Below are positions 8,420 to 64,000 of a stretch of 64,000 bases of DNA, in pieces. The notes beneath the pieces are model-generated. The model did not search any database, was not told the DNA's origin, and worked only from the letters and a program-made list of their open reading frames with translations. Origin of the DNA: Puniceicoccales bacterium (GTDB lineage Bacteria; Verrucomicrobiota; Verrucomicrobiia; Opitutales; JAIRLM01); the NCBI GenBank assembly GCA_031275345.1, contig JAISOW010000005.1, positions 413 through 64,412 of the forward strand. Reading direction: 5' to 3'. The first letter of the stretch is position 1; each line of letters opens with the position of its first letter. Both the position numbers and the translations under genes were made by a program.

Positions 8420-10364
8420 CTTTTTTTGCCTGGCCAATCTTCCAAACCTTCTTATCTTGGAATTCGAACGCCCGCCAATGGCCGCGGGAACTGTGGGCGC
8501 AGACCGGTTCGAGTAGGTTTACAAGTGTCACCTGTGCGGCATGAAACTGATTCACAAAATTTGTATACGCGACACAATTTTGAACACATTCTGCCCAGGG
8601 ACGTGATTGTTCTTTTGTCCACTGATCACGCGCTTCCGAGTCCATTTGGTCCTCCGCCACCATGGTTGGCGCCCCCAGTAAAGGGTCAATGGCACACAGC
8701 TCACCGTTGAGATCTTCATAGGTTGGCAGTTTGGGGAATTTGCCGCTTACCTTGCCCTGCTTGGCGAAGAAGTCCCACAATTCTGCCCAGCCATCGTAGG
8801 CGCCCCCTTCCCATTTAAATTTGATGGGATATCTTCCGTCCGTATTCGGGGCATCATCATAAACAAGGACCGGTTTGGGCGGCTCAAAATCATAGGGCCG
8901 TATGGCACGGTAGTTCGATAAATTGGTGGAAGTGAACAGTATAAGTTCAGCATCGATGTAAGATAAAAGTGAACGGCCATGGTGCACGCATGTGAGCAAA
9001 ATGTCATACTGATCTCCCCATTTGCCGTCCTGGCGCACAACTGTGAGAAGACGATTCATGAAACCCAATTCACAGTTATTGGTCAAGGGACAATAAGAGG
9101 TAATGAATGTATTGTTAAGCAACAGCTTGCCAAAGTTTTGCATGCCATCATGTTTTCTGATACATTCCTTCATTTGCTTCGCAAGCTCGCTTCGAGCTTT
9201 ACTAACAACATCTTCTGCTTCGTTGATAGCATCTTGTGCGGCCTTCTCCTGTTTGGTAAGAGACTGTTGTTCATCACAATCTCGTACTTGGATACCACTT
9301 TTTTTCTGCCGTTCTTGGATGGCAGTAAGTCCTTTTTTTACTTCGATAAATACTTTTTTCTGCTGTGCCCGGGTGTCGTCAAGTTTTTTTTCTTCTTCAA
9401 CAAGTATTGCGATGGCAGGCAATAGCGTGGTCAATTTTGGGAATTTTTTCCCCAAATTCTCTTTCGACTGTCCCTGTTGACACAAATCTTTTGCCTGGTA
9501 CACGTCCTTCAAAAATTTTTCCACGTCATCGAGTGACTTGGAGGGAGCGCCCTTGCAGCCCAGCAATTCCAAGCCGACATTCAGCGCGTCATTTCGCATT
9601 TGCCGCTGGTTTTTTGGATGGCCGGTTATTTGTTGGGCAAGTGTGAAAAATGCGCAATTTCCTGCGGCGCCGCACTCGATGGGTTGTATCGCCGGCGGCC
9701 ACGTCATAGCTGGCAGAATTGCTTGGACCATATCCGTGCTTTTCAGGTCTATGCTGGTGTCCGGCGGGAAATTTGAAGTTGCCTGGGGCGTTGGCAACTG
9801 ATTCATCGGTGGTACATTCACTGGTGATTCGTCCACAGATAGCTCGTTCGCAGATGGTTCATTCACCTGTGATTCGGTCACCCATGGTGCTGGCTGTGAA
9901 TTTGGCCCTACCATATCCTTCCATTCCCCATCCCGTCGTGATTCTTTCAAGGCCGATTCTTTTTGACCTATGTCCGAAGAAGAATTCTGTTCCGGTGGGG
10001 ACGATGGTTTCACCGACGTCCCGTTCCACATCCTCCTTGGTTCCACAAAAAGCAGGAAATTTTGTAGGGATGGCGCGTCGCTCTGCACAACCATTTGCAC
10101 CACTACCCAGCAAAATGCCGTGGGAATCCACAGCACCAAATGCAACATTCCCAATCCGATGGCACATAGACGGGAAAAACAGGTCGCCACTTGGGCTTTT
10201 GGGTCGGTGACGGCAGTATTCATGTCGTGCTTGCAAAGAATGGTAGTGTCCGTTTTTTGGGAGACTTGTATCAGGGAACTCATGGCAGCATCCGGTAGAA
10301 TTTCCACTCCATACACAACCCATGCAAGCGTGCGGCAGTGGCGGTTTATATCGCAAAAATGCAC
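8412..10364 (-). CDS. Putative secreted OTU-like cysteine protease (deubiquitinase-like) with hydrophobic hairpin and coiled-coil insert
   Basis: 650-aa ORF. It has a GNCAFF Cys-loop (Cys codon 9654-9656), a C-terminal GHWRAF His motif, and an N-proximal hairpin LCAIGLGMLHLVLWIPTAFCWVVVQMVV. An alternative start at 10283 (MSSLIQVSQ...) is plausible. Confidence 0.35.
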   Translation of the reverse strand: MHFCDINRHCRTLAWVVYGVEILPDAAMSSLIQVSQKTDTTILCKHDMNTAVTDPKAQVATCFSRLCAIGLGMLHLVLWIPTAFCWVVVQMVVQSDAPSLQNFLLFVEPRRMWNGTSVKPSSPPEQNSSSDIGQKESALKESRRDGEWKDMVGPNSQPAPWVTESQVNEPSANELSVDESPVNVPPMNQLPTPQATSNFPPDTSIDLKSTDMVQAILPAMTWPPAIQPIECGAAGNCAFFTLAQQITGHPKNQRQMRNDALNVGLELLGCKGAPSKSLDDVEKFLKDVYQAKDLCQQGQSKENLGKKFPKLTTLLPAIAILVEEEKKLDDTRAQQKKVFIEVKKGLTAIQERQKKSGIQVRDCDEQQSLTKQEKAAQDAINEAEDVVSKARSELAKQMKECIRKHDGMQNFGKLLLNNTFITSYCPLTNNCELGFMNRLLTVVRQDGKWGDQYDILLTCVHHGRSLLSYIDAELILFTSTNLSNYRAIRPYDFEPPKPVLVYDDAPNTDGRYPIKFKWEGGAYDGWAELWDFFAKQGKVSGKFPKLPTYEDLNGELCAIDPLLGAPTMVAEDQMDSEARDQWTKEQSRPWAECVQNCVAYTNFVNQFHAAQVTLVNLLEPVCAHSSRGHWRAFEFQDKKVWKIGQAKKAS

Positions 10365-10374
10365 GGTTTTACAA

Positions 10375-10395
10375 GGAAAATTGTCCCAATTCTCC
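10375..10395. promoter_or_regulatory. Quasi-palindromic element GGAAAATTGTCCCAATTCTCC
   Basis: Intergenic, upstream of the OTU-like gene. It is related to the element at 11428-11451 and to the GGAAATGTCCA arm at 699-709. Confidence 0.3.
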
Positions 10396-12255: not shown

Positions 12256-13884
12256 TTAGGGATGGGAAGCCGCGCAGAATGGGGCAAGTAGGGACCGCAG
12301 AGCCGAGCGGCCGATGGCGCAATCCACCGTGAACTGGCCATTGCCAAGGCGCAGGAAACAGCAGGCCGAGGAGTCGCACAGCGGTGGCGTGATGCGAAGA
12401 CAGACTGCCACGTCTCGTCCGATGTCGATGGCATTGATGTCGGACAGCGATGCCTGCCGCAGCTGCCCTCTCAGGATGTCATCGATCGTTGTCCGCATGG
12501 TTGTTTCACAGCTGGCGATGGCCACAAGGTCCCGCAGGGTGCAAAAATAGGAATTGCGGTAGGAGCAATCTTCTTCCCCGTCTGCCGTGGTGCGGCATTC
12601 CGCCAGACATACGTGGATGACCGGAACTCCGCGGTGGACAAAACTTTGCCGTTCCACATTCGCCTCCACCCGCAGGGAAACATCCTGTGGCAGCGTAGCA
12701 AGGGATGTGCGCAGGGTTGGGACAACCTTGGTGTAGAAAAAGCTCACGCCATCCGCCAATTTTTCGTAGGAAATGTTGGCAGTCAGTAGCTTGCGCAGAC
12801 AACCATCCTGGCCACGGCCCGTTGCCGCCACCCCATTCAGCGTGCCCAACAGGCCGTGGAGCTGGTTGTATACGTCCCGCTCCGCCACGCCATTCAGCCC
12901 CTGCTGGCCGTAGGAAAAGAAACCATCCAGAAAGTATTCCCAAAATTGTTCCAAACGGCGAGGGTTGTAGCGGGCAAGCATCTGTGCCGTGCAATCGGCT
13001 GGGATGAGCCGGGCCAGCGGATCCATGTCCATCCCATCCAATGACTCATTGAAAAGAGTGGCCAGATCCGACCCGGGCGTGGCACAGAATGTTGCCTGCC
13101 ATGCCAGGCCCTTTTCCGTCACATCGCAAAATACTAGCACCCGTTCCAGCGAATCGCCAAGGTTCAGCACCAGGTTGAGCAGGGCAAGCGTTGACATGCT
13201 GCCGTTGAGATCTTGCAAAAATTGCAAATTGCGCAGTGTTGAGCGCTCCAACAGAATGGCTAGTCTGCGAATCAGTGCCGGACAGCAGTTTATGCACACA
13301 TCATGGGCGCAGGGCAATCCCGCCATGGGGACAAGCCCATCCAGCAGATCTTCCCGGCCCAGCAATTTTTCATCCTTTGCCAAAAATACCCAGCCACCCC
13401 ACGGCGCCGCCTTCATTCCATGCAGGGCAGCGGCGGAAATCACCGGGCTGGATCCACTGGCACGGACGCATAAAATCCAGCCGGCACCGGCGCCGTGGTC
13501 CACCAAAAATGCGTGGCAAAAATCTTTTTCGGAAATGCCTGGAAAATCTGGATAGCCAACAAGTCCTAGCAAAACCTTTGGAGCCAAACAATTTTCCCGC
13601 ATCACATCCTCTGCCAGGGCCATCACCTCGCCGCCCAGCTGTTTTGGAGAAGCCATTTGCACGTGGCAAAGCACGGGACATTTCTCAGCCATTTCCGCGG
13701 CACGGCATGGGCAGGCCAAACATTTTTCCGTACCCAATGGATCCGCAACCAACGGCCCGTCTGCCAGGACAAGGCCCACCACACACAACCCCAAACACCG
13801 CCACGCCATCACGGTGCTGAGTATGGCGAGAAAATTTTTCGTGCCAAAATTTTTTTCAAATTTTCCCAATGGAAAAGTTCCCAT
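12256..13884 (-). CDS. Hypothetical exported/membrane-anchored protein occupying the position downstream of ftsQ
   Basis: 542 aa. It has an N-terminal hydrophobic anchor (FLAILSTVMAWRCLGLCVVGLVL), is Cys-rich, and has backbone-like GC. No FtsA/FtsZ motifs are present. Confidence 0.55.
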   Translation of the reverse strand: MGTFPLGKFEKNFGTKNFLAILSTVMAWRCLGLCVVGLVLADGPLVADPLGTEKCLACPCRAAEMAEKCPVLCHVQMASPKQLGGEVMALAEDVMRENCLAPKVLLGLVGYPDFPGISEKDFCHAFLVDHGAGAGWILCVRASGSSPVISAAALHGMKAAPWGGWVFLAKDEKLLGREDLLDGLVPMAGLPCAHDVCINCCPALIRRLAILLERSTLRNLQFLQDLNGSMSTLALLNLVLNLGDSLERVLVFCDVTEKGLAWQATFCATPGSDLATLFNESLDGMDMDPLARLIPADCTAQMLARYNPRRLEQFWEYFLDGFFSYGQQGLNGVAERDVYNQLHGLLGTLNGVAATGRGQDGCLRKLLTANISYEKLADGVSFFYTKVVPTLRTSLATLPQDVSLRVEANVERQSFVHRGVPVIHVCLAECRTTADGEEDCSYRNSYFCTLRDLVAIASCETTMRTTIDDILRGQLRQASLSDINAIDIGRDVAVCLRITPPLCDSSACCFLRLGNGQFTVDCAIGRSALRSLLAPFCAASHP

Positions 13885-14900: not shown

Positions 14901-15839
14901 CTATGCTGCTGCTGCCGCCGCCGCACGGTCCTCCCAGGCGCGGGCCACGACCGTTCGTAGCAGTTCGTCGGGCGCAATGCCAACCCCGGCGGCGCTGTCC
15001 GGGTAGAGGCTTGTTGCGGTGAACCCGGGAATGGCATTGATTTCCAAAAAAAAAGGTCGCCCGTCCGAATCCATTAAAAAATCCACCCGCGCCCAGTCGC
15101 GGCATCCACAGATTTTAAAAACTTGCAGGGCCAATTGCCTCAGCAATTTCTCCGCAGCTTTTTCGATGGGTGCCGGGCAGATGTGGCGTACCTGCCCCGC
15201 GCAGTACTTGCCGGAATAGGAAAGAAATTCTTGGCCGTGTTCAATTTCCACCACGGCAAGCGCCCGATCCTCCAGCAGCCCAACGGTAAATTCCCGGCCA
15301 GAGCAGAGAGGTTCCACCAGCCAGTCACCGGCGCCACGGCCGGCGACCGCCGCATTCCATTCCTGTGATCCGTGAATTGGCCGGCAAAATAGGCTGCTGC
15401 CCATGGCGTCCGGCTTGAAAAAAAATCGCTGCGCAGACAGGTCGTGGCACAGTTCGGCAAACGACGGCGGCCGCATTTTTTGGGAAAATGTGCGGGATGG
15501 AAGGATCGGTACACCGGCTGACGCCACCCGTTCCTTGGTTTTACTTTTGCAAATTGTGAGCTCCATGGCTGCATGGCCACTGCCAACGTAGGAAAAATTT
15601 TGCCGCTCTAGCAAACGCTGTAGCCGCCCATCTTCGCCAAAATCTCCGTGAATGATAGGAAAAATCACCGCCATAGCTGGGTCCAAATCTTTTGGCAGGA
15701 CGTTGTCCTCCAATTCCATCAGTCGGCAGGGCAGCTGACGGCGCAGCACATCCCATGCCCTTCGGCCAGAATTCAGGGATATTTCCCGTTCTCCGGAAAT
15801 TCCGCCCGATAAAATGACCAGCTCCCGTTCTCTTTTCAC
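14901..15839 (-). CDS. ddl: D-alanine--D-alanine ligase
   Basis: 312 aa with full-length Ddl-like ATP-grasp sequence (ILSGGISGEREISL...EINAIPGFT). The GTG start overlaps the murB stop (GTGA at 15836-15839). Confidence 0.85.
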   Translation of the reverse strand: MKRERELVILSGGISGEREISLNSGRRAWDVLRRQLPCRLMELEDNVLPKDLDPAMAVIFPIIHGDFGEDGRLQRLLERQNFSYVGSGHAAMELTICKSKTKERVASAGVPILPSRTFSQKMRPPSFAELCHDLSAQRFFFKPDAMGSSLFCRPIHGSQEWNAAVAGRGAGDWLVEPLCSGREFTVGLLEDRALAVVEIEHGQEFLSYSGKYCAGQVRHICPAPIEKAAEKLLRQLALQVFKICGCRDWARVDFLMDSDGRPFFLEINAIPGFTATSLYPDSAAGVGIAPDELLRTVVARAWEDRAAAAAAA

Positions 15840-17965
15840 AGCTGTCCCACCCAGTGGTCCGACAGGTATTCCACCTCGGTTAGAAGGTCAACGGCGAAGC
15901 GCCGCTCCACCTCTCGCTTGGCATGGAAGATGAGGCCCAGCACATCGTCGCCGCACGCGCCGCCAACGTTGACGATGAAATTGGCATGCTGGGAAGAAAT
16001 TTCCGCCCCACCACGGCGCAGGCCGCGCAGACCAGCTTCGGAAATCAGCTCCCACGCCGGCCGACCTCCCGGAGGGTTGCGAAAAATGCTGCCGGCGCTC
16101 GCCCCAGTTGGTTGCCGTTCTCTTCGCATGCGGACAAGTTCTTTCTGCTTTTGCAAAATTTCCTCCACCGGTCGGCACTCGTTTGGCAATGACAGTGATG
16201 CTTCCAAAAGAATGCTATCGGATGGCATGCCCCAGCTGCGGTAGCGGAAGGGAATTTGGCTGGTTTTGCGAAGTTCGCCATTGCCATCTAGGTAAGTGAT
16301 GCATCGCACCATTGCTCCGATGCTGCCGCCGAATGCTCCCGCATTCATGCGGACAGCCCCTCCCACAGTCCCTGGTATGCCGAGGCAAAATTCATAGCCG
16401 CCAATGCCATGTTCGGCGCAGAACCGTGCCAGGGACGACAGCATCAAGCCTGCCCCAACCAACAATTCATCTTCCCGTGCCAGACAGTATTCCCAGCAAG
16501 GTCCCCGCAGACGGATGGCAAGGCCGGAAAAGCCGCCATCGTCTACCAATAGCTTGGACCCATTGCCTAGTAGAAATTTAGGCAATTTCGCCCGTTCGGC
16601 ATTGGCAAGCAGCATGCGCAGTGCATCGGTGCTATCCGGTTCTGAAAAAAACCGTGCTGGACCGCCAATTTGCAGGGTTGTCAATGGGGCAAGTGGCACA
16701 TTTTCCCGAAAATTGGAGCCATCGCCACGGCGGCATAGTTTTGTAAAAAATAGGTCGCGAATGCGCCGTGCATGGGCTTCAGCCAGGCCATGGATTGGGC
16801 CAGCTCCTACGAATAGCAGGGTCGTTTCCTGTTTTGATTCCACCGGCAACTTCTCCAGCAGCTGGCCACCGCCAAGGAAGGGTATGGCAAGGGCAGCGGC
16901 TAGCCGTTCAGCCGCTCCAAGTGCCAGGTATGGCTCGTAGGCCGCATAGGTTGGCAGCAATACGGCCGATGGAACGGTGGCAAGGACGGAAAAAAATTCA
17001 TCGAAATGTCGGGCGGTCCTGGAATAGCGATGCGGCTGAAAAATGACCTGGCAACGATCCAGGGAAAATTCTCGCAAAAACGCAGCTATCTCCGTTGGAT
17101 GGTGGGCATAGTCCGCCACCACGCGCACGGAGCCGGTTCCCATGAGCACGCTTTGCCGCCTGTGGACGGCAACGGATGGGAACTGGAACGGGGCAGGGCA
17201 AAGAAAGTCGGCAACCATCCTGGCGGCGGCGGCATTGAATCGGTTGTAGATGGTTGTGCCACTGGGACATAGTCCATCGGGCAGTGGCTCAATGGGACTG
17301 CAATGGTTTTTTCCCAAAAAAGTGCGCAAAAAGGGGTGATCTCCATTGAAAAATATACGACCCTGCGTGCGGTCAAAGAAGCGCAAAAATGCACTTTGCA
17401 GGGCCTGCTCCGTCCCATGGTAAGCTTCGTGGTCCATGGACAGGTTGAGGGCGAGGGTGATGTCAGGGGAAAATAGTTCAAAGGATGGTTCACTCTCATC
17501 GATCTCTGCCACCGTCCAGGCAGCTCCTTCGTGGCGACCGGGGGGAGAATTGTCGGCAAATAGCCCGCCCAGTAAAAAGTTGCAGCCAAAGCCGCGCGAC
17601 CGCAGTAGGTGGATGAGCATGGCCGTCGTGGTTGTCTTGCCGTGGCTGCCAACGACGGCAATTAGCCTTTGCCCCTGCAGGACGTCGGCCAGGCATTCAC
17701 CCCGCGATTTTATGGAAATTTCCCGGCGCCGTGCCGCCAAGAACAGTGCATCATCCCGGCGCAGGGCCGCGGTGTGAACAAATCGGTCGCAGGCCGGCAA
17801 TTCTCTGGGCCGCGGCAGAGTTTCCACCCCGGCGCGTTTGAGAAGAAATGCTCGGCGCCTGTCCAAATGATCGTCGAAGCCAAGCACTTCCTCGCCCAAA
17901 TCGCGCAGAAACAACGCCAGCGGCAACATGCCAGCCCCGCCGATGCCGGCAAAAAAATTTTTCAT
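15836..17965 (-). CDS. murC/murB: Fused UDP-N-acetylmuramate--L-alanine ligase / UDP-N-acetylenolpyruvoylglucosamine reductase
   Basis: The N-terminal part is MurC-like (FFAGIGGAGMLPLA, VVGSHGKTTTTAM). The C-terminal part is MurB-like (LAPLTTLQIGGPA...GNGSKLL...SAGSIFRNP). The start is placed at the ATG at 17963-17965, overlapping the murG stop (ATGA). The 852-aa ORF extension is rejected. Confidence 0.8.
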   Translation of the reverse strand: MKNFFAGIGGAGMLPLALFLRDLGEEVLGFDDHLDRRRAFLLKRAGVETLPRPRELPACDRFVHTAALRRDDALFLAARRREISIKSRGECLADVLQGQRLIAVVGSHGKTTTTAMLIHLLRSRGFGCNFLLGGLFADNSPPGRHEGAAWTVAEIDESEPSFELFSPDITLALNLSMDHEAYHGTEQALQSAFLRFFDRTQGRIFFNGDHPFLRTFLGKNHCSPIEPLPDGLCPSGTTIYNRFNAAAARMVADFLCPAPFQFPSVAVHRRQSVLMGTGSVRVVADYAHHPTEIAAFLREFSLDRCQVIFQPHRYSRTARHFDEFFSVLATVPSAVLLPTYAAYEPYLALGAAERLAAALAIPFLGGGQLLEKLPVESKQETTLLFVGAGPIHGLAEAHARRIRDLFFTKLCRRGDGSNFRENVPLAPLTTLQIGGPARFFSEPDSTDALRMLLANAERAKLPKFLLGNGSKLLVDDGGFSGLAIRLRGPCWEYCLAREDELLVGAGLMLSSLARFCAEHGIGGYEFCLGIPGTVGGAVRMNAGAFGGSIGAMVRCITYLDGNGELRKTSQIPFRYRSWGMPSDSILLEASLSLPNECRPVEEILQKQKELVRMRRERQPTGASAGSIFRNPPGGRPAWELISEAGLRGLRRGGAEISSQHANFIVNVGGACGDDVLGLIFHAKREVERRFAVDLLTEVEYLSDHWVGQL

Positions 17966-19236
17966 CGCCGCAGACCCTCTTCGATGGAGACTGCCAATTT
18001 TTCGGCACCGTTGGCCATTTTCATCCGCAATTTGAGCAAATTTTTTTCCATCACTTCCCGCTCCTTCGAATGTTCCCATTCTCCGATGCGGTTCAGCAAT
18101 TTCCCCAGCTGCTCCTGTGGCAGATGAATTGCGGCACCATTCCGTTCCATGGCCAATGCGTTGGCCGTTTGGTGGCCATTGGCCGCATGGGGATAGGGAA
18201 CGAGGAAGGATGGCGTGGCACAGGCGGTTAGTTCCGCAATTGTTCCGGCACCTGCCCGGCAAATGGCCAGGTCCACGGCAGACAGCAGCAGATGCATGGC
18301 GTGGCAAAATGGGAAATATGTCAAAAAATAGAACGTTCCTCCACGGCCACGGCTGAACACTTTTCGCTCCCAGCCACCTAGCCCGGTCAAACAAATCCCA
18401 TGCCAGCCGGCCGCGGCCAGCTGCTGCCCATTGGCTGCGGCCCAGTCCACGAGGACCCGTGCCCCCTGACTACCCCCCATCACCAGAAGCAGATTTTCTT
18501 CCAATGGCAGTGCCAACCGCCTCCGTGCCTCGCCGCGGCCGCAGGGAATAAAATCGCTCCGCAAAGGATATTCCATGGCCACATGGCGCCGTTTTTTTGC
18601 CAGCGCGGTGGAATTTTTTAGGGCATGGGGCACGTAGATCCGGCTGGCGATGGGAGCAAACAGGCGCACCGCCTTCCCGGGACGCTGGTTGACTTCGCAG
18701 AGGAAAATGGGTCGGCGCAGAAAAAATGCGGCAAGGCAGGGGCCGAATGCGGTAAACCCACCAAAGCTTACAACCCCGGCAACGGAATGCTTGCGAATGA
18801 GTCGCAGGCAGATCACGAAAGAGCGCAGGGCGCCCCATGCGGCGCGGAGCAGAACCCGCGGTTTTAGGGAAAAGCCGCTGCCCGGCAGTACAAGGAAGGC
18901 AATATTGGGATAGGACTGGCAAAATTGCCCGTCGACGGACTTGCCACTGATGGCCAACAGAGAGCTGCGGCCGATGGCGCATAGCCGCTGGGCAAGGGCA
19001 ATGCCCGGCACCACGTGTCCCCCCGTTCCACCACAGGCGATGAGAATCTGGCCCTCTTTTGCGGGAATCTGACCGCCTTCGGCGAAAACTTGCCCCGTCC
19101 CCGCTGGAGCCAGACCTGCTTTAATGGGATCTCGAACCGTTTCTGCTGGATCGCAGCCCTCCGCAGCACCTTCCGCAGCAGCGTCCGCAAAATAACGATG
19201 GTCAATGGGCCGTCGCATGCGCCACGGCAGCTTCAT
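17962..19236 (-). CDS. murG: Undecaprenyldiphospho-muramoylpentapeptide beta-N-acetylglucosaminyltransferase
   Basis: It has ACGGTGGHVVPGIALA and the C-terminal MurG-like ...AGAGTIAEL. An N-terminal extension of about 60 aa is present. The ATG overlaps the rpsT stop (ATGA at 19233-19236). Confidence 0.8.
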   Translation of the reverse strand: MKLPWRMRRPIDHRYFADAAAEGAAEGCDPAETVRDPIKAGLAPAGTGQVFAEGGQIPAKEGQILIACGGTGGHVVPGIALAQRLCAIGRSSLLAISGKSVDGQFCQSYPNIAFLVLPGSGFSLKPRVLLRAAWGALRSFVICLRLIRKHSVAGVVSFGGFTAFGPCLAAFFLRRPIFLCEVNQRPGKAVRLFAPIASRIYVPHALKNSTALAKKRRHVAMEYPLRSDFIPCGRGEARRRLALPLEENLLLVMGGSQGARVLVDWAAANGQQLAAAGWHGICLTGLGGWERKVFSRGRGGTFYFLTYFPFCHAMHLLLSAVDLAICRAGAGTIAELTACATPSFLVPYPHAANGHQTANALAMERNGAAIHLPQEQLGKLLNRIGEWEHSKEREVMEKNLLKLRMKMANGAEKLAVSIEEGLRR

Positions 19237-19651: not shown

Positions 19652-21370
19652 ATGCTGGTGAGCGTTGGCATGGACCACAGGGGCGTGGCACTGCGGTCCG
19701 CCATCCTGCACTTCTGCTCTGCCCGTGGATTTTTGGTGATTGATCGTGGAACGGCCGACGGCTCTGCGCCGGTCGACTATCCATTGATTGCCCATCCCGT
19801 GGCCCGCGATGTGCAATTCGGACGGGCACGGTTCGGAATTCTGGCCTGCGGCAGCGGCCTTGGCATGGCGGTGGCGGCCAACCGTCTACCGGGCGTACGT
19901 GCGGCCCTTGTCCTGTCCCGGGAAATGGCAAAAATTTTTCGTCGACACAACCATGGCAATGTGCTGTGCCTGGGTGCTCGCTGGCAGGAGCCGGAGGAGG
20001 TGGCTCCGCTGCTGCAGTATTTTTTTGATGAGGAAGAGGACGGTGGGTTACGCCATCGGCGAAGGGTTGCTCTGCTGGATGGCGGGTGCTGGCCGTACGG
20101 AAAAGGAAGTGCCATGGAAGGTAAAAGCGCTTTAGCGACAGAGGATCCGGAAATTTTTGCGGCCATTGGAGGGGAGCGGCGACGCCAGGAAGAATATGTT
20201 GAACTCATTGCATCGGAAAACTTTGTATCACCCAGCATTCTCGAAGCGGCGGGATCCATCCTGACCAACAAATACGCCGAGGGCTATCCCGGCCAGCGGT
20301 ACTACGGCGGCTGCGAGTTTGTTGACCGGGTGGAGTCCTTGGCCAGGGACCGAGCAAAGAAACTTTTTGGGGCGGAGCATGCAAATGTGCAGCCGCACTC
20401 CGGATCCCAGGCAAACATGGCGGTGTACGCGGCCGTGCTCAGGCCGGGCGATCGCATTTTGACCATGTCCCTGAGCCACGGGGGCCATCTTACCCACGGC
20501 TATGCAAAGAATTTGAGCGGCATGCTCTACGAGGTGACACACTACGGGACGGATCCCGAATCCCAGCGGCTGGACTACGCCGCCATGGCCCGCATTGCGG
20601 AAAAGGTGCGGCCAAAGCTCGTCACCGTTGGAGCATCTGCCTATCCGCGCCAAATAGATTTTCAAAAGGTCGCCGAGCTAGCCCACGCCGTTGGTGCCCT
20701 TGCCATGGCGGACATGGCCCACGTGGCAGGCCTGGTTGCGGCTGGCCTGCACCCATCTCCGGTTCCTTTCTGCGACCTCGTCACCGCCACGACCCACAAA
20801 ACTCTGCGGGGCCCGCGGGGAGGACTCATCCTATGCCGCAAAGAATTTGCCAAGGCGATCGACGGAGCCGTATTTCCCGGCATCCAGGGCGGGCCGCTCA
20901 TGCACATCATCGCAGCCAAGGCTGTCTGCTTCCGGGAGGCAACTGGACAAAAATTTCGCGACTACCAGCGGCTGGTGCTGGAAAATGCGGCCGTTATGGC
21001 AAAAACTTTGCAAAATCTTGGCTTTTCCCTGGTTGCGGGTGGGACGGACAACCATCTATTCCTCATCGACCTGCGCAAAAACCTGCCGACCATGGATGGA
21101 AAAATGGCGCAAATTTTGCTGGAGCGGGCCCACATCACGGTGAACAAGAACACCATCCCGGGAGAAACGCGCAGTCCGGTTGACACCAGCGGCGTGCGGA
21201 TCGGAACGCCGGCCATCACCTCCCGCGGCATGGGCCCGGCCGAGGCACAGCAGATTGGCCAATGGATTGCCGAAGTGCTCATGGCCAATGGCAGTGAAGA
21301 GACCATCGCCACCGTGCGGGAAAATGTGCTGGCCCTATGCTCCCGCTTTCCACTACCCTATCCGGGATGA
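19652..21370 (+). CDS. rpiB-glyA: Fusion protein: ribose-5-phosphate isomerase B domain + serine hydroxymethyltransferase
   Basis: The first ~145 aa are RpiB/LacAB-like ([11 protein letters not shown]...[14 protein letters not shown]). The remainder is full-length SHMT (LIASENFVS...[12 protein letters not shown]). Confidence 0.85.
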
Positions 21371-22074: not shown

Positions 22075-22131
22075 AATCGGCAGGTGGCAAAACCTGGGCA
22101 ATAATCGTAAAAATTTTGTTGACGAAGAATT

Positions 22132-23262
22132 TTGAGATTTATTCGCTGGCCCGTGCGCGGGTTTTCCCACTCCAACTACGTTGCCTATCTTCGGCGCGCA
22201 CTCCGCTTTACCTGGCGCGATGAATTGCTCTTGGAGCTGGCCGTGGGAGGAGAATTGGAGCAAAAAAAACTTGCTCAACTGTTTGATGGGCTGGACATCG
22301 CCCACGAATGCTACCGCTTCAACCTGCTCCTCGCCCTGATTTGCGACCGCATGGATTTTCACGGAGTACCGGAGAACTTTGCTCCGCGGCTGCGTGGCAT
22401 TATCCGCTACTACCACTTCCACAATGCAGCCCTGCTGTCAAAATTTAGCATTCTTGGCCGGGCATTGAACGCAAAAGGCATCCCAATATTGCTGTTGAAG
22501 GGCGCCGCCATGCGGGCGATGGACGACCAGAACCGTCCCCGTGCCATGGGAGATGTGGATTTTGCTGTGCCGGCAACGGAGCACAATGCGGTGCTGGTGG
22601 AGGCGAAACGGCAGGGATTTTCCATGACCCACAGGGCGCGCCATGCCGTGGATCTGCGCAATGGGCAATGCCAAATCGATGTGCACCGAACAATTTTTCA
22701 CGACAGCCAGGGAGCGGCAGCGGAGGAAGAAATTTGGCGAAGGGCCAGTCCTGTCCATTGCCACGGCGTGGATGCTCTGCTGCCAGCACCGGAGGACATG
22801 TTCCTCAGCCTGGTTTGCAACGAATTCCGCAACATTCTCTACTCCGACCGCGACCTGCAGTATTTTCAATGGATCCACGACTGTGCCTTCCTATTGCAAA
22901 AATTTCCCGACTTTGATTGGTGCCTGTTGCTTGCAACGGCCAATGGCGTTGGCCTGGTGACGCAACTCAAACCAATGGTGGGAATTTTGCGCTCCATGTT
23001 GCCGGCGCTCGTGCCGGAAGAACTTTCCGCCGACCGGTGGAAGCTGCAGGGACGTGAATTGGACGGCATTGCAAAAAATTTATTGATCCATGCTACGTCG
23101 ATCAAAAATTGGGAACGCAAGCGGCTGCGCCTCCTTTCCTGCCGTTCATTGCGGGATGTACGCCACTACATTTCCACAAAAATAAAGTATCGGCTGCTCA
23201 AGTGCGTCCGCAAGTGCCGACCGCTGCGCCGACTGGCCGTTGGCATCCTGGTGCACCCATGA
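22132..23262 (+). CDS. Uncharacterised nucleotidyltransferase family protein (PF14907-like)
   Basis: 376 aa. The stretch GIPILLLKGAAMRAMDDQNRPRAMGDVDFAVP matches the family pattern LLKG...R..GD.D.lv. The start is uncertain. Confidence 0.6.
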   Translation: MRFIRWPVRGFSHSNYVAYLRRALRFTWRDELLLELAVGGELEQKKLAQLFDGLDIAHECYRFNLLLALICDRMDFHGVPENFAPRLRGIIRYYHFHNAALLSKFSILGRALNAKGIPILLLKGAAMRAMDDQNRPRAMGDVDFAVPATEHNAVLVEAKRQGFSMTHRARHAVDLRNGQCQIDVHRTIFHDSQGAAAEEEIWRRASPVHCHGVDALLPAPEDMFLSLVCNEFRNILYSDRDLQYFQWIHDCAFLLQKFPDFDWCLLLATANGVGLVTQLKPMVGILRSMLPALVPEELSADRWKLQGRELDGIAKNLLIHATSIKNWERKRLRLLSCRSLRDVRHYISTKIKYRLLKCVRKCRPLRRLAVGILVHP

Positions 23263-24323
23263 ACGGAACCGGGGAAAAAAATTTACAAAACGCCAAGCGC
23301 TGGCTACGGCTGGCGTTTGCCCAGTTGGATCGCCGCTTCCGCCGGGCAACGGCCGGCTGGGAACCGGAAAAAATTTATCTCAACATTGCCGGTGTGTCCA
23401 TGCGCGTTGATTGCTACGTGAATGAACTGGTTGACCCAATTCGGCAGCAGCTGGCCTACTGTTGCCAGGATGGGGACGATGGGGACCATGAAATTTTACT
23501 AAACATTTGGAATGAACAACTTGCACCATATGTTGCGATTCCGGAATGGGCCTGCCACTCGAACCACCTGCGCACAATCGTAGAATATTCGGAGCCGCAT
23601 TGGGCTTTTCAGCGGCTCATTGCCCACGACCGGGAGCGGCGCATTGGCTACCTCCTCAATCCGGTGCGCAGTGCGATGGAAGTTTTTGTGCGCGGCCATA
23701 TTCTAGTTAAATCCATCTATTTGGCTCTTCTAGAGGATAATAGATCCCTATTCCACGCCGCAGCGATTGGCTGGAAAAATCGGGGCGCGCTCATCTGTGG
23801 CCGGGGGGGGCGGGGCAAGAGTACGCTTGCCATCTCCGGCATGATTGGTGGCTTTCAGTATGTTTCCGACGACTACCTGATTCTCGAAAAAAATGCAAAT
23901 GGTCTTTGTGCCTACCCCATCTATTCCATTGTCACATTGGCGGAGGAAATGCAGGCAAAACTGCCGCCGCTGTGGGGCGACTACCTCTATCCCAATTACA
24001 ACGGGAAAAAGGACGTGATCAAAATTTCGGCCCGCCACGATTTTTTTGCCCCACGCCTGCCCATCGTGGTTGGAATTTTTCCAGAAGTGCGCACAGGAGA
24101 AAAGCCAGCCATCGAAGCAATGCATCCTGGACGCGCGATCACGCAGGCTGTCCATTCAACAATTGTCCAGACCCAGTTCCAGGAGTTGCCAAAGCAGGTT
24201 CGCCGCCTTTCGTCATTGCTGCGCAGCCTGCCCTTCTACCGCTTTTACGTGGGGGAATGCCTGGAGGAAAATGTGGCGGTTTTGCGAAAATTTTTGGAGA
24301 AACAAAATGTACCAGCTGAATGA
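23259..24323 (+). CDS. HPr-kinase-related P-loop protein (HprK C-terminal-like)
   Basis: The stretch LFHAAAIGWKNRGALICGRGGRGKSTLAISGMIGGFQYVSDDYLILE contains a P-loop at 23799-23825. The ATG overlaps the upstream stop (ATGA at 23259-23262). Confidence 0.6.
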   Translation: MNGTGEKNLQNAKRWLRLAFAQLDRRFRRATAGWEPEKIYLNIAGVSMRVDCYVNELVDPIRQQLAYCCQDGDDGDHEILLNIWNEQLAPYVAIPEWACHSNHLRTIVEYSEPHWAFQRLIAHDRERRIGYLLNPVRSAMEVFVRGHILVKSIYLALLEDNRSLFHAAAIGWKNRGALICGRGGRGKSTLAISGMIGGFQYVSDDYLILEKNANGLCAYPIYSIVTLAEEMQAKLPPLWGDYLYPNYNGKKDVIKISARHDFFAPRLPIVVGIFPEVRTGEKPAIEAMHPGRAITQAVHSTIVQTQFQELPKQVRRLSSLLRSLPFYRFYVGECLEENVAVLRKFLEKQNVPAE

Positions 24324-24729
24324 TCAAGAAGTTTTTATGGATGTGTCCGACGGCATTGCCATCATTATCAATTTTGAAAGTGGCATCTATCATGGAGCCA
24401 ATCTGTTGGGAACATGGGTACTGGAACAGCTCTGCGCCGGCCATGGCCAGCAGGAAATTTTGGCACAAATTCAAAGACTGCCCCGCTGCCCCGATGACAT
24501 GGAGGAACGGCTGGCCTCGTTTATTGAAGACCTGCGGACGCTCCACATCCTTGCGGATGGTGGTCCGGCTACGAACGACAAAATAAAACCTCCGGCGGCG
24601 AAAATGGCAAAGGAATCGAAGTTTAATCTAACCATAACGACCTACAACGACGCCCAGGACCTACTATTCGCCGACCCAATCCACGAGGTTGACGAGGCAG
24701 AGGGCTGGCTGCCGGAAAAGAAAGGTTAA
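24307..24729 (+). CDS. PqqD-family / RiPP-recognition-element-like protein
   Basis: 140 aa. MYQLNDQEVFMDVSDGIAIIINFESGIYHGANLLGTWVLEQL...ILAQI follows the PqqD-like pattern. It overlaps the upstream gene by 17 nt. Confidence 0.55.
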   Translation: MYQLNDQEVFMDVSDGIAIIINFESGIYHGANLLGTWVLEQLCAGHGQQEILAQIQRLPRCPDDMEERLASFIEDLRTLHILADGGPATNDKIKPPAAKMAKESKFNLTITTYNDAQDLLFADPIHEVDEAEGWLPEKKG

Positions 24730-24893
24730 ACGCAGGATGGAAAATTTCCGATTCGGCCGGTAACTTTTTTTCATTTGGCAAATTGTGTAGGTCGTTAGCC
24801 AATGCAAACTTACCAAACCTGCGCACGCAATTTGTCCCAAAAACGAAAAATTTTCTTGGCCGATGCTGAAAAATTTTCTATCATTGCGCCACT

Positions 24894-25319
24894 GTGGATA
24901 AAATAGTATCTAGTGTGAAGACCTGGCTTGTTACCGAACAGAGCACCGTTGAGGGAAATTTTAAAGGAAATTTCAAGGCTCCAACGAGCGTAAAGGACTT
25001 TTTTCAAAAAATTTGGACAACGATAAAGGAAAACCCAGGCCGGTTCATGGCACTTGTAGTGTCGATTCCTAGCACGATTATTTTCGGAGTATTATGTCCA
25101 CCACTGCTCCTGATTTTCATTCCGACTCACCTTGGATTTTCGCTGCTTTGCCTTAATGTCACACTTGCCAAATTTCGTCCTTCAACGGTGGAGGAAAATC
25201 TGGCCAAAGGGAGAGAATGCGTTGGACAGGTTCAGGATAAAGCCAACGAAGTTGGGGAAAAAGTCGTCAACACAGGTGAAGCCGCTGTAGGTCGTTTCTC
25301 GGCTTTGTTTGAAGATTAA
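24894..25319 (+). CDS. Small Inc-like membrane protein (bilobed hydrophobic domain)
   Basis: 141 aa with a GTG start. The hydrophobic domain is FMALVVSIPSTIIFGVLCPPLLLIFIPTHLGFSLLCLNVTL. The N-terminal motif is NFKAPTSVKDFFQKIWTTIKE. Confidence 0.45.
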   Translation: MDKIVSSVKTWLVTEQSTVEGNFKGNFKAPTSVKDFFQKIWTTIKENPGRFMALVVSIPSTIIFGVLCPPLLLIFIPTHLGFSLLCLNVTLAKFRPSTVEENLAKGRECVGQVQDKANEVGEKVVNTGEAAVGRFSALFED

Positions 25320-25957: not shown

Positions 25958-26277
25958 ATGGCAAAAAATTTTCCAGTCTGCCAGAATCTTTTAGGTATAG
26001 GATTCGTTCACTATAACAACTTCCTTGCCCTTCATCAACGCTTTGTGTTGGAATCGTCTCCGAAACTTTGCGAAGCTGAATGTCATTAGCATATTTCCCT
26101 GGGCAAGCTTGCGCCAGGCAATGGGGATCAATCCTTGCTCCACTTCGTCTGCTACGACGGGAAAAAGGCTCGCTTTCTTCCCCTGCACGCATTCCAGGCC
26201 AGTGGCGGTTTCTTTGGCCTCGGCCGCCACGGCAAACGGGATTAGCGGCTGATCCTGGTCCGGAGGCGACACTCGCC

Positions 26278-26730
26278 ATGAACTACTACGTTGGTCCCAA
26301 GGAATATGCCCGACTGGAACGGATGGGACAAAGCCAGGATCGGGTGATGCAGTGCGGCTGGTTCGGTTTCATTGGGAAAATTTTACTGATTCTCATGATG
26401 GGAATCCACTGCCTGGTGCCCAACTGGGGCTGGCCAATCATTCTGCTGACCTTATTGGTGAAGCTGCTCCTTTGGCCATTGACCGGGGAATAGGTGCGCT
26501 TTTTATGGGCCCTGAACCGCCTGCAAAGGCCAATTTGAGAAATCCCAGCCCGCCATAAAAACCATCCCAAAAAGGTGCAGGAGGAAACACCGCGGCTGTT
26601 CCGGGAGGAGGGAGTCAGCCCGGCCGCCGGCTGTCTGCCAATTCTGATCGAGGTGCTGGACCGAGCGAAGCGGCAACTGGCCTTGGAAAATTTTTGCGCG
26701 GTGACCGAAGGAGTTCTGGAACTATTTTAG
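26278..26730 (+). pseudogene. yidC: Fragmented yidC (membrane insertase) remnant
   Basis: NYYVGPKEY...NWGWPIILLTLLVKLLLWPLTGE ends at the stop at 26491-26493. The YidC-like sequence then continues in another frame (HPKKVQEETPRLFREEGVSPAAGCLPILIEV) before diverging. The N-terminal periplasmic domain and the C-terminal TM segments are missing. Confidence 0.6.
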
Positions 26731-26809
26731 GACGATCCGCAATTGGCATCCAAGGCACGGGAATGAATGATCCTTTTGCTGGCCGACTACGTGCGCAGGA
26801 CATTGTCCG

Positions 26810-60101: not shown

Positions 60102-61310
60102 TCAGCGAAAAAACGGATAGATGCGGAGCAGCGGCCGTCCTAGGACGGCCGGCAGAGGAATGGGGCCAAAAAAGCGGCTATCGTAGCTGTTGATAGAATT
60201 GTCGCCGAGAACGAATGCGTGGTCCGGCGGGACGGTGGCAACGGTCTCCAGCAATCCCATGGGAATGTAGCCCAAAAACGGCGAAATATGGCCGTTGTTT
60301 GCGGCCATGGGAGTTGAAAAGTTGGCCGGTTCTCCGTTGGCCCACAGCTGGCCATCGGCAATGGCCAACCGATCCCCTCCCAGCCCCACCAGCCGCTTGA
60401 TGTAGTAGCGATCGTCGGGGTAAAGCCGCGGCACGGCGCGGGTGGCAAATACCACCGCCTCGCCCCGACGTGGTGGACGGTAGTGGGCCGTGATCCTGTC
60501 GACGAGTAGCACATCGCCGTGGATGAGCAGGAAGCGTAGCAGCGGTTCGCCAGCTTTCGCCGTTTCACCGGTTCGCAGCACGGCCTGCCCAGCTTCTCGA
60601 CCGGATGGATGGTTTTGCAGAATTTGGCTAAGGCGGACAGCCGGAGAATTTGGGAAAAAACGACGCACCAGCAGGCTTTCCACGTCGAAATCTTCCGGCA
60701 CGGTGATGGCAATGGAAGTTGAACCTACCAGCAGCTGGTAGCGGCGCATGCGCACGGGCCAAATGCCACAGCGGCGTAAAATAACAGGGTCATAGGACAG
60801 CAACGAACCCTGGCGCCTAGCCCTTGCTCCACCGTTGAGAGGGATGGAAATTTCTCCGGAATTTGGGCTAACAATGGAATAAAATTTTCCACCGCGCAGC
60901 AGCTTTACCGCCAGACTGGGCCACCGTGGTGCCGTCCAAATCTCAGCCCCCATGCCCCTGTGGGTTGGCCACATGGAGTTGGTTGGTATGGAGAATGGTT
61001 GGACAAAAAATGTGCGGATGGCAAGTGCGGCGATGGCGGCCACAAGCAGTGCTTCTCCATTTCCCGCAAAAAAGCGCTGGGGCCATAGGGGTCCGCCGTA
61101 GGTTGCCAATAGCTCCCTCACCCGCTCCGAGGCAACCACACCCTCCGAAACCGACGGCATGGGGTGGTGCAAAATTTTTTGCATTTCTTCGCAGACCACC
61201 GTCGGCAATAGGTCCCTACGCCATCGATACACCTGCCGCAGAGACCGCAGCAAAAGACGGCCCGCCCGCCGCTCTCGCCAGGTACACCAGCGGGCCATCC
61301 AGATTCCCAT
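60102..61310 (-). CDS. lepB: Signal peptidase I
   Basis: It has IPTNSMWPT (catalytic Ser), a K-containing box, and GDNSINSYDSRFFGPIP. At 402 aa it has a large insert. The start is uncertain. Confidence 0.8.
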   Translation of the reverse strand: MGIWMARWCTWRERRAGRLLLRSLRQVYRWRRDLLPTVVCEEMQKILHHPMPSVSEGVVASERVRELLATYGGPLWPQRFFAGNGEALLVAAIAALAIRTFFVQPFSIPTNSMWPTHRGMGAEIWTAPRWPSLAVKLLRGGKFYSIVSPNSGEISIPLNGGARARRQGSLLSYDPVILRRCGIWPVRMRRYQLLVGSTSIAITVPEDFDVESLLVRRFFPNSPAVRLSQILQNHPSGREAGQAVLRTGETAKAGEPLLRFLLIHGDVLLVDRITAHYRPPRRGEAVVFATRAVPRLYPDDRYYIKRLVGLGGDRLAIADGQLWANGEPANFSTPMAANNGHISPFLGYIPMGLLETVATVPPDHAFVLGDNSINSYDSRFFGPIPLPAVLGRPLLRIYPFFR

Positions 61311-63092: not shown

Positions 63093-63779
63093 CTAGGACG
63101 CCGCCAAGGTTCTTTCCAAAACTTTGCGGATTGCCTCCAGTTGTACGTCCAGGCTGGCGTCCACAATGCCGACCTCCGTTTCGATCAGACAGGTGTTTTT
63201 TTCCAATCGACCATCGGCCACCACCTCCACCATGGTTTGTAGATGTCCTCCTCCCTTGGAAAGTTCGGCAATGCTGGCCCTGGCTGCCGGAGCCTGGTCC
63301 GGGCAAACCTTGAGCACGGCCTGGCGCTGGTTGCGAATCACCTGCAAGGAGTTGGCCACGATGCGATGGACCAATTCTGTGTCGGAAAATTCTCCAATAA
63401 TCCGGCGCAGCGCACGCATCACCATGTTGAGAACCACATCGGCATAGGCGGAAAAATTCTGCACATTTCTGGCGCACATTTCCATCATCTGCTCGGCCAT
63501 TTCCTGCTTACCTTCTGCCAGGCCAACCTCATAGCCTTCCTGCCGCTTGGCATCGAATGCAGCCTGGGTGGAATCCGTAAGCTTCTTGGCTCTGGCGGCG
63601 GCCTCTGCTTCCAGATTGGCTGCCTCTTTTTTTGCATTGCCAATCACATTGCTGGCAATGGTTTCGGCATCCCGAATAATTTCTGCCGCACTGCGCAGGG
63701 CCAAAAACTCATCGCTCCGCAGGACACGCTTCCCAGGTACGACCTCCCACGTCCTTGTTCTGTCAAGTACCCACACCAT
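63093..63779 (-). CDS. sctL: Type III secretion stator protein SctL (YscL/CdsL/FliH family)
   Basis: 228 aa. It has an N-terminal ...KRVLRSDEFLALRSAAEII and a coiled-coil. The C-terminal NTCLIETEVGIVDASLDVQLEAIRKVLE closely parallels the YscL/CdsL C-terminus (GGCIIETEAGIINAQLDVQL, from memory). Confidence 0.6.
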   Translation of the reverse strand: MVWVLDRTRTWEVVPGKRVLRSDEFLALRSAAEIIRDAETIASNVIGNAKKEAANLEAEAAARAKKLTDSTQAAFDAKRQEGYEVGLAEGKQEMAEQMMEMCARNVQNFSAYADVVLNMVMRALRRIIGEFSDTELVHRIVANSLQVIRNQRQAVLKVCPDQAPAARASIAELSKGGGHLQTMVEVVADGRLEKNTCLIETEVGIVDASLDVQLEAIRKVLERTLAAS

Positions 63780-64000
63780 GATGTTGCACCCCCTTCTTCG
63801 CCGCAACGATGTGCCGCCGCAGCCGCACCAAAAATTGCCAAAGCACATCCGCCTCCTGTTTTCCTGTGCCACGGACAACCGGCCACCGTTCATCCACAGG
63901 AAATTTGAGGGGAAATCGTTCCCGTAGGGCAGGTGGCAGGTCAAATAGACAGGCCGCAACGCAGCGCCGTCCCGCCGTAACCGTTCTTTCGGCCAACGAT
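63763..64000 (-). CDS. Partial ORF upstream of sctL (runs to the window edge)
   Basis: The open frame overlaps the sctL start by 17 nt. It is in the position expected for another T3SS component, but no motif is recognisable in the ~77 aa visible. Confidence 0.2.
   Translation of the reverse strand, partial: SLAERTVTAGRRCVAACLFDLPPALRERFPLKFPVDERWPVVRGTGKQEADVLWQFLVRLRRHIVAAKKGVQHHGVGT

Follow-up and report, generated by a model that had tools for sequence, protein, structure and literature searches.

A translationally coupled nucleotidyltransferase, kinase and RRE gene trio of Puniceicoccales, the minimal form of a widespread glycosyltransferase-associated cassette

The 64-kb stretch of Puniceicoccales DNA analysed here (the window) carries three overlapping open reading frames (ORFs) on its forward strand between positions 22132 and 24729, encoding in this order a nucleotidyltransferase (NT), a P-loop kinase (K), and a 140-residue protein (Q) that begins with a PqqD-like RRE, the recognition element of peptides that are ribosomally synthesised and modified post-translationally (RiPPs). 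Together the genes make up a single, translationally coupled operon (Table 1), with an ATGA overlap at the NT/K junction (23259-23262) and a 17-nt overlap at the K/Q junction (24307-24323), as the initial annotation of this DNA had described. NT starts either at a TTG codon at 22132, giving 376 aa, or at a GTG codon at 22153, as in the public gene call, giving 369 aa, and K is identical to the public 'hypothetical protein LBP65_02335' of a Puniceicoccales metagenome-assembled genome (MAG). The trio belongs to a large cassette family found in at least eight bacterial lineages, and its most informative feature, missed in the initial annotation, is an invariant, disordered motif at the C-terminus of Q.

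NT is readily assigned to PF14907 (E=1.9e-28, 100.2 bits, gathering cutoff 31.2), with the motif K-G...G-D-V-D and a downstream D-V-H kept across an alignment of 76 homologues. At the sequence level K matches Hpr_kinase_C (PF07475) weakly over residues 164-214 (16.1 bits, below the cutoff of 33.3), its sequence match in the PDB, 3tqf, has E=0.48, and it carries a weak precomputed match to PF27840 'ScmC'. The AlphaFold2 (AF2) model of K, with a predicted local distance difference test score (pLDDT) of 87.7, aligns in Foldseek with ATP-PEPCK over its whole length (E 2e-10, TMq ~0.5) and with HprK/P (E ~1e-6), and a 60-sequence alignment shows the P-loop G186-K-S-T189, the pair D204-D205, and both H147 and H166 to be invariant. 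K thus has the fold, the Walker A motif, and the DD metal site of an HprK/PEPCK P-loop kinase. Q likewise falls below the cutoff of the PqqD Pfam model (20.0 against 23.4 bits), with most of its homologues carrying a precomputed PF05402 match. The AF2 model of Q (pLDDT 85.6 overall) resembles the lasso peptide RREs TbiB1 and TfuB1 (target-normalised TM 0.80-0.85, Foldseek probability 1.0), and a profile of the Q family reaches TbiB1 at E=2.6e-7, with a TG.Y.G.N..G core common to both. Q therefore has the PqqD/RRE fold, and is predicted from its model to bind peptides.

The curated NCBIfam models are missed widely by these proteins. K scores 27.4 bits against TIGR04352 (HPr-rel-A kinase; cutoff 200), 45.7 bits against TIGR04355 (HprK-rel-B; cutoff 200, residues 157-219 only), and 12.7 bits against ScmC (cutoff 125), with Q scoring 19.7 against ScmD (cutoff 100) and 18.7 against lasso_PqqD_Strm (cutoff 70), and giving no match to the HPr-rel-A PqqD model. 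By these scores the trio is not the HPr-rel-A system, to which the initial annotation had likened it. Its three family assignments hold at the level of the fold, through Pfam for NT and through AF2 and Foldseek for K and Q; of the profile models it had named, PF14907 matches, and PF07475, PF05402, TIGR04352, and TIGR04355 stay under their cutoffs. The possibility that the catalytic residues are degenerate can be set aside, with the P-loop and DD of K and the GDVD of NT intact across the alignments described above. A reading of the trio as a defence system was rejected, as PADLOC-DB models gave no match to NT, K, or Q at E <= 0.01.

Q proteins range from 137 to 164 aa across the family, some 55 residues beyond the lasso B1 proteins. 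In the AF2 model the RRE (residues 1-84) is followed by a variable linker, a helix (98-104), a strand (110-113), a second helix (116-122), and a C-terminus at pLDDT ~50, with the extension between residues 85 and 122 following the pattern F106.L108....Y113.DAQDLLFA. The C-terminal motif ADPIHEV..E..GW.P, with the wider tail consensus [FY].....EY.DAQELLLADPIHEVKEE.GW.PEK, is predicted to be disordered and is near-invariant in Q. Over 80 Q sequences, mean pairwise identity is 0.83-0.85 in the tail, 0.57 in the RRE core, and 0.28 in the linker, as would be expected of a peptide that the enzymes recognise, whether it serves them for docking or is their substrate. The tail stops after GW.P in the window Q and in those of Elusimicrobia, Bacteroidales, and Deferribacterales, and runs on in other Q proteins as '...DSIGYTKEET.EREKK.E' or '...SALNPD.EDVARREAK..'. 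A phmmer search of 1.84 billion representatives with the 45-aa window tail found the motif confined to Q-family proteins and fragments; the remaining matches, two spurious repeat proteins and the product of a chimeric contig, were discarded as instances of the motif outside Q.

Several natural variants bear on the relationship between Q and K. K proteins of ~500 aa, common in Gastranaerophilales (e.g. P0063, L008 5297-6817), bear a C-terminal PqqD-like domain in which the strand-helix extension is kept and DPIHEV..GW is missing, and a separate, tail-bearing Q always follows the genes for these fusions. In 37 of 38 loci the K-PqqD fusion is accompanied by a Q whose tail is extended by 'DSIGYTKEET', an association confounded by shared ancestry. 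In P0003 (L091 1185-2777) K is fused to a full Q, whose divergent tail, AKPMHDISEDG, has lost D123 and GW. The K-PqqD fusions and this one K-Q fusion tie Q physically to K. The locus L093 (1444-3657), a GT2-K-Q arrangement with no NT 5' of K, encodes a Q with the tail DPIEMIEYEGW, such that the tail His126, here a Glu, is nearly but not absolutely invariant; this single case, on a 3.7-kb contig, may point to a link between the tail His and NT.

A scan with a degenerate pattern, keeping one genome per species, yielded 80 loci with NT-K-Q, comprising, as classed by record title, Gastranaerophilales and other Melainabacteria (40), Alphaproteobacteria, including MAGs labelled Rickettsiales (14), Desulfovibrionales and other delta-proteobacteria (6), Elusimicrobia (5), Bacteroidales (4), Deferribacterales, Planctomycetota, Puniceicoccales, and 'Heliobacteriaceae' (1 each), and unclassified genomes (7). 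All carriers are uncultured, with the samples coming from gut, rumen, and termite. ORF calling with phmmer labels recovered all three genes, arranged as NT, K, and Q, in 83 of 91 loci, with the remainder interrupted by contig ends, and neighbourhood look-ups at six loci showed this order in all six. A profile search with seven Q sequences returned 1,146 Q clusters at 90% identity, and K homologues at 30-46% identity are plentiful in metagenomes. The trio had first been viewed as a stand-alone oddity, a view at odds with its recurrence in ~80 species, where it almost always heads a variable glycosyltransferase (GT) locus. Neither a cassette of NT, K, Q, and glycosyltransferases nor the tail motif of Q turned up in full-text searches of the literature outside subscription journals.

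In every locus outside Puniceicoccales that reaches past Q, Q is followed by 1-11 co-directional genes, mostly glycosyltransferases, with some of the additional cassette genes standing 5' of the trio in a few loci. A GT2 orthogroup of ~327 aa is present in 59 loci, often in several copies, and a second of ~222 aa in 51 of the 80; also recurrent are GT8, Gly_transf_sug, and DUF4422 (18/85 otherwise unlabelled genes), and many loci also have radical SAM proteins (~320-350 aa), FkbM methyltransferases, epimerases, and sugar-nucleotide genes. The smallest complete cassettes consist of the trio and three GT2 genes (L005, L015, L022, L087). ABC transporters account for 2 of the 85 unlabelled in-operon genes, and neither Wzx, Wzy, nor an initiating phosphoglycosyltransferase is among the 25 most frequent of the 67 families represented in such genes. 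DUF1796, a putative papain-like cysteine peptidase, occurs within five GT arrays (e.g. L018 13639-14355), these being the sole peptidase-like cassette genes seen. Four Gastranaerophilales loci (L018, L027, L054, and L077, at about 6300-7900 on the reverse strand) have a second NT paralogue, transcribed divergently, 5' of the main operon, paired in the first three with a ~220-aa GT2. An apparent Q-GT2 fusion in L090 was dismissed as an artefact of masked Ns in the record.

The GT-less state is seen only in two Puniceicoccales species, that of the window and that of the sister MAG Roe453_bin74, which holds the nearest relative (66-68% identity). Neither the 64-kb window nor the 12.4-kb sister contig encodes GT2, GT8, or radical SAM homologues, and searches of their six-frame translations with family hidden Markov models (HMMs) picked up no remains of decayed GT or radical SAM genes; the trio without GTs is therefore a minimal form specific to this lineage. 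Between the two species the ratio of nonsynonymous to synonymous substitution (dN/dS) is 0.16 for Q and similarly low for NT and K (Table 1), ratios that are approximate at a dS of ~1.5, near saturation, and the Puniceicoccales trio is maintained under purifying selection. On the sister contig (L001) the trio is bracketed by 202-nt direct repeats (6857-7058 and 10183-10384, 96% identical), which belong to a GC-rich repeat family with more copies nearby; none flank the trio in the window. Pfam scans of ~50 window ORFs at least 100 aa long, with every ORF of >=500 aa among them, gave no match to an Asn-synthetase-like cyclase, a transglutaminase-like protease, an ABC exporter, a GT2, or a radical SAM protein, and these scans, with a six-frame search for leaders, uphold over the 64 kb the claim that cyclase, protease, exporter, and precursor are absent. 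The sole S26 peptidase of the window lies 36 kb away among housekeeping genes.

The sole experimental precedents, all in Bacillota, come from peptide tailoring. During the biosynthesis of pseudomycoidin, PsmK, which is HprK-like, phosphorylates the C-terminal Ser, and the PF14907-type PsmN is needed for the addition of one to two hexoses to the phosphorylated form, with D-to-A mutants of both enzymes inactive, although the authors of that study allowed that PsmN might instead produce a donor substrate (PMC6993621). LppK transfers several phosphates onto Ser3 of the linear precursor LppA, in a cyclase-free cluster with a discrete RRE that often lies in capsule loci, with LppN silent in the heterologous host (PMC13381572), and Butyrivibrio lasso clusters combine a nucleotidyltransferase, an HPr kinase, and a GT2 (PMC7533575).

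Gene structure, folds, catalytic motifs, synteny, GT association, purifying selection, and motif conservation are supported directly, and the full cassette appears to assemble a sugar chain that is joined to its target through phosphate. We give about an even chance to the interpretation that the trio would be the core of an RRE-guided phosphorylation and phosphate-capping module, with the peptide nature of the target, the chemistry, and the order of steps suggested by PsmK/PsmN and LppK. Q, through its lasso B1-like RRE and invariant disordered tail, would gather a polypeptide target and the enzymes, allowing K to phosphorylate the target; NT, a member of PsmN's Pfam family, would then modify the phosphate, most likely with a sugar attached via a phosphodiester. 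In nearly all other carriers the adjacent GT2, GT8, and DUF4422 enzymes would lengthen this primer into a strain-variable glycan. Puniceicoccales keep only the priming trio, so the product there would go no further than a phospho- or phospho-hexosyl adduct, unless enzymes encoded elsewhere extend it.

A number of observations weigh against this module. The NT step is the least secure, because LppN was inactive in its heterologous host and more than one mechanism is conceivable for PsmN. K and Q lie below the curated cutoffs of every named family, and the model of K is closer to full-length PEPCK, a small-molecule kinase, than to HprK/P. The searches also yielded no precursor peptide, nor a recurrent peptidase or exporter across the cassette loci. 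When 813 intergenic ORFs of 30-130 aa from the 80 loci were compared with one another by BLAST, peptides of <30 aa being outside this range, no small-ORF family proved to be conserved near the cassette; the sole recurrent ORF was an XRE regulator in six loci, and the co-conserved small ORF for which a neighbourhood survey had initially been proposed did not emerge. The two Puniceicoccales have no small ORF in common (a 34-aa ORF at 24802-24906, for example, has no counterpart in the sister), and the six-frame translation of the window contains no LPP-type leader motif. Furthermore, the window Q contains neither Ser, Thr, nor Tyr past residue 113, and its tail is therefore not a canonical HprK-type Ser acceptor.

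Two other candidates for a target were considered and rejected. The pseudopilin encoded upstream of NT, put forward initially as a candidate peptide target, is not supported as such, since its adjacency is not conserved in the sister species, where the ORF upstream on L001 is unrelated. 'u112', a small protein encoded after Q in Deferribacterales and Planctomycetota, reads by sequence as a transposase-tail remnant and occurs in these two lineages only.

It is possible, though we regard it as unlikely, that Q is itself the substrate or carrier, an RRE-fused 'precursor' whose tail would receive phosphate or a nucleotide from K and NT and, in other lineages, sugars, making the cassette self-contained. 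Q is the only conserved cassette polypeptide besides the enzymes, and its tail is its best-conserved segment yet is predicted to be disordered, which is typical of a recognised peptide; moreover, the motif is exclusive to Q proteins, Q is kept even beside K proteins with their own, motif-free PqqD domain, and the K-PqqD fusions go with one particular tail extension, an association confounded by shared ancestry. A self-contained cassette would also account for horizontal spread over phyla. Against this, the motif has no invariant hydroxyl residue, with Y113 replaced by Phe in some Q sequences, its His and Asp residues and GW are themselves replaced or lost in the L093 and P0003 variants, and Q is single-copy with no cleavage or export signal. 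Glycosylation of Asp, His, or Trp is not known for GT2 enzymes. Taken to its conclusion, the same idea would make NT-K-Q a new class of ribosomal glycoconjugate, with a precursor fused to its own recognition element, a non-hydroxyl tail residue such as His or Asp activated by the phosphate chemistry of K and NT, a strain-variable glycan built by cytoplasmic GT2 arrays, neither leader cleavage nor dedicated export, and the Puniceicoccales trio as its minimal version; this proposal is similarly doubtful. A non-peptide acceptor is a rather improbable explanation, in which the substrate phosphorylated by K would be a sugar or another small molecule, NT would convert this into an unusual NDP-sugar or phosphodiester donor, the glycosyltransferases would use the product, and Q would serve as a scaffold. 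A kinase and a nucleotidyltransferase at the head of a GT locus are the classic layout for sugar activation. The full-length alignment of the K model with PEPCK, the absence of a precursor, peptidase, or exporter, and the open possibility that PsmN makes a donor substrate (PMC6993621) are all consistent with such a role. It leaves unexplained, however, the conserved RRE with its intact B1-like core and invariant tail, and sits poorly with the purifying selection on a GT-less trio and with the fact that every characterised kinase/nucleotidyltransferase/RRE set acts on ribosomal peptides. In addition, PF14907 carries the motif of Pol-beta-like nucleotidyltransferases rather than the fold of the enzymes that act on sugar 1-phosphates.

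That these are tailoring genes displaced from a cluster of lasso or LPP type elsewhere in the genome appears very improbable. K, NT, and a discrete RRE are standard accessories of paeninodin-type lasso and LPP clusters, and 64 kb of the genome were inspected; yet the family, with 30-45% identity and the same gene order and tail, never stands beside a cyclase, B2 protease, SpI peptidase, or MsbA exporter in ~80 loci, the lasso and LPP systems with these accessories are reported from Bacillota, and the trio is alone on the sister Puniceicoccales contig too. We place still less credence in the trio being a non-functional remnant left after loss of the glycosyltransferases in a decaying, host-associated genome. 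A decayed yidC lies ~1.4 kb 3' of Q, in a low-GC downstream region with only small or orphan ORFs, and the GT genes are absent. On the other hand, none of the three ORFs is disrupted and each retains all residues that are invariant in its family, the low dN/dS against the sister indicates constraint, family HMMs pick up no GT or radical SAM debris in the six-frame translations, and the trio alone is kept in two species with different flanks.

The trio lies 57 nt downstream of a prepilin-type N-methylation gene, which itself starts at the stop codon of an RpiB-GlyA fusion gene, in agreement with the upstream context first described. The region contains 7 sigma-70-like sites, compared with 3.2 +/- 1.5 in shuffled sequences, with no enrichment of terminator-like sites and no Rfam match at E <= 1 between 19000 and 27000. 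The yidC remnant, interrupted by several in-frame stops, suggests gene decay just 3' of the trio. The type III secretion system (T3SS) context proposed in the initial annotation is supported by one FliH/SctL-like stator gene, the sole T3SS or flagellar component in the ~50 ORFs scanned; it lies close to the 3' end of the window, and any cluster would therefore extend outside it. Housekeeping genes of the window include ftsQ-ddl-murC/B-murG, rpsT, rpiB-glyA, cysS, def, dnaA, a T2SSE ATPase gene, fabV, glgB, gap, atpB, nadK, tpiA, lepB, uppS, dapF, and clpP, with the presence of dnaA suggesting that the window is near the replication origin. Interspersed with these genes are large ORFs without a Pfam match, of lower GC content (0.46-0.51, compared with 0.55-0.61 in the housekeeping genes), which may encode lineage-specific secreted or effector proteins.

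Table 1. Positions of the trio, its parts, and other features of the window; dN/dS values are approximate (dS near saturation).
Feature	Coordinates	Strand	Basis
NT, PF14907 (NTP_transf_5) nucleotidyltransferase	22132-23262	+	Pfam 100 bits; motifs; dN/dS 0.17
K, 354-aa P-loop kinase, HprK/PEPCK fold	23259-24323	+	AF2 and Foldseek; invariant motifs; dN/dS 0.18
Q, whole gene	24307-24729	+	
Q residues 1-84, RRE (PqqD-like) domain, predicted peptide-binding	24307-24558	+	AF2 pLDDT >90; Foldseek TbiB1/TfuB1
Q residues 85-122, variable linker and family-specific helix-strand-helix extension	24559-24672	+	AF2 pLDDT 77-90
Q residues 123-140 and stop, near-invariant C-terminal motif DPIHEVDEAEGWLPEKKG	24673-24729	+	Conservation; AF2 pLDDT ~50
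Sigma-70-like promoter match just 5' of NT	22077-22105	+	9/12 consensus; weak evidence
MurC-MurB fusion	15836-18394	-	
RpiB-GlyA (serine hydroxymethyltransferase, SHMT) fusion	19652-21370	+	
yidC remnant, decayed	26080-26800	+	Several in-frame stops
yidC remnant, YidC_periplas end and 60KD_IMP start	26080-26493	+	
yidC remnant, 60KD_IMP positions 51-76	26575-26730	+	
dnaA	38041-39477	+	
S26 peptidase	60102-61310		
FliH/T3SS_SCTL stator	63093-63959	-	Above Pfam cutoffs
ORF with weak dual-specificity phosphatase motif	5529-7424		
ORFs without Pfam match, 368-1059 aa	1772-3280; 3453-4865; 8412-10364; 12256-13884; 26810-29989; 30293-31399; 31815-34295		GC 0.46-0.51

NT-K-Q is thus a widespread cassette of uncultured gut lineages (among them human, ruminant, and termite Melainabacteria, Elusimicrobia, and Alphaproteobacteria), with the window holding its minimal form, and it connects the chemistry of kinase/nucleotidyltransferase/RRE peptide phosphorylation to variable glycosyltransferase loci. 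The conserved 14-residue motif of Q provides a concrete handle for finding the target, and the GT-less trio, three genes in 2.6 kb, a natural minimal construct for testing the core function. Should Q prove to be the target, ribosomal natural products or glycosylated proteins would here be made by a new logic; should it not, the cassette still delimits a new and widespread branch of the LPP/paeninodin tailoring machinery. The observation that began this analysis is confirmed, with its earlier interpretation supported in part.

The comparison with paeninodin-type tailoring drawn in that interpretation was the correct one. Paeninodin and pseudomycoidin tailoring (PadeK/PsmK, PsmN, and B1) employs the same three kinds of protein, namely an HprK-like P-loop kinase with DD, a D-x-D NTP-transferase, and a discrete PqqD-like RRE, with Ser phosphorylation followed by addition of hexose to the phosphate being the chemistry shown there (PMC6993621), and GT2 genes sometimes co-occur (PMC7533575), a further likeness to the cassette. 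Unlike these systems, the trio is without a cyclase, B2 protease, ABC exporter, or precursor, with neither cyclase nor B2 protease among the ~50 scanned ORFs and no convincing [Y/W]xxP leader ORF near the trio, and its gene order is NT-K-Q. Q also differs from lasso B1 in its 55-residue extension ending in the invariant motif, and the hosts of the cassette are Gram-negative and Melainabacteria gut lineages, whereas paeninodin-type clusters belong to Bacillota.

The LPP systems (LppA/K/B/S/D/N; Popov et al., Nat Commun 2026, May; PMC13381572), a cyclase-free RiPP family with a kinase, an RRE, and a nucleotidyltransferase, resemble the cassette in combining a cyclase-free kinase, a discrete RRE, and an NTP transferase, often amid polysaccharide or glycosyltransferase genes, and their existence means that the lack of a lasso maturase is no longer unprecedented. 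They are recognised by a signal peptidase I (SpI) of the archaeal type, an MsbA-like exporter, and a precursor with the leader YxxPxVLxHQxIxFETxxS beside the kinase, RRE, and NTP transferase; this peptidase, exporter, and leader are absent from the window and not recurrent in the family, and LPPs, unlike the cassette, are restricted to Bacillota. A 56-kb mobilisable plasmid of the cultivable host Clostridium perfringens (NZ_CP148590.1, 48864-55757; L092) carries an LPP-like cluster, laid out as radical SAM, signal peptidase I, a 550-aa PqqD-family fusion, radical SAM, an HprK-like protein, and an ABC transporter; no other plasmid in PLSDB carries a relative and no other LPP-like relative was found, and its kinase is 24.5% identical to K. 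The trio is a member of neither the lasso nor the LPP class, since searches for a cyclase, a B2 protease, an SpI peptidase, an exporter, and a precursor with a leader all came back negative.

SynChlorMet (ScmC/ScmD), HPr-rel-A, and HprK-rel-B (GAK), cassettes defined by bioinformatics, like the trio pair an HprK-like with a PqqD-like protein and come without an identified precursor. SynChlorMet cassettes comprise the HprK-like ScmC, the PqqD-like ScmD, and the radical SAM/SPASM proteins ScmE and ScmF. The trio differs from all three in missing their curated cutoffs widely, and from SynChlorMet in having no SPASM radical SAM partner in the window. Mycofactocin (MftA peptide, MftB RRE, MftC radical SAM, and MftF GT2) provides an example of a cytoplasmic, RRE-dependent pathway that ends in oligoglycosylation by a GT2 and has no exporter, and the GT2 enzymes of the cassette give sub-threshold matches to the MftF model. 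Mycofactocin differs in having no kinase or nucleotidyltransferase, in its separate small precursor peptide, and in its obligatory radical SAM enzyme, whereas many cassettes have none. By analogy, therefore, it is with the kinase/nucleotidyltransferase/RRE tailoring sets of paeninodin-type lasso peptides and LPPs that the trio would be expected to share its mode of action.

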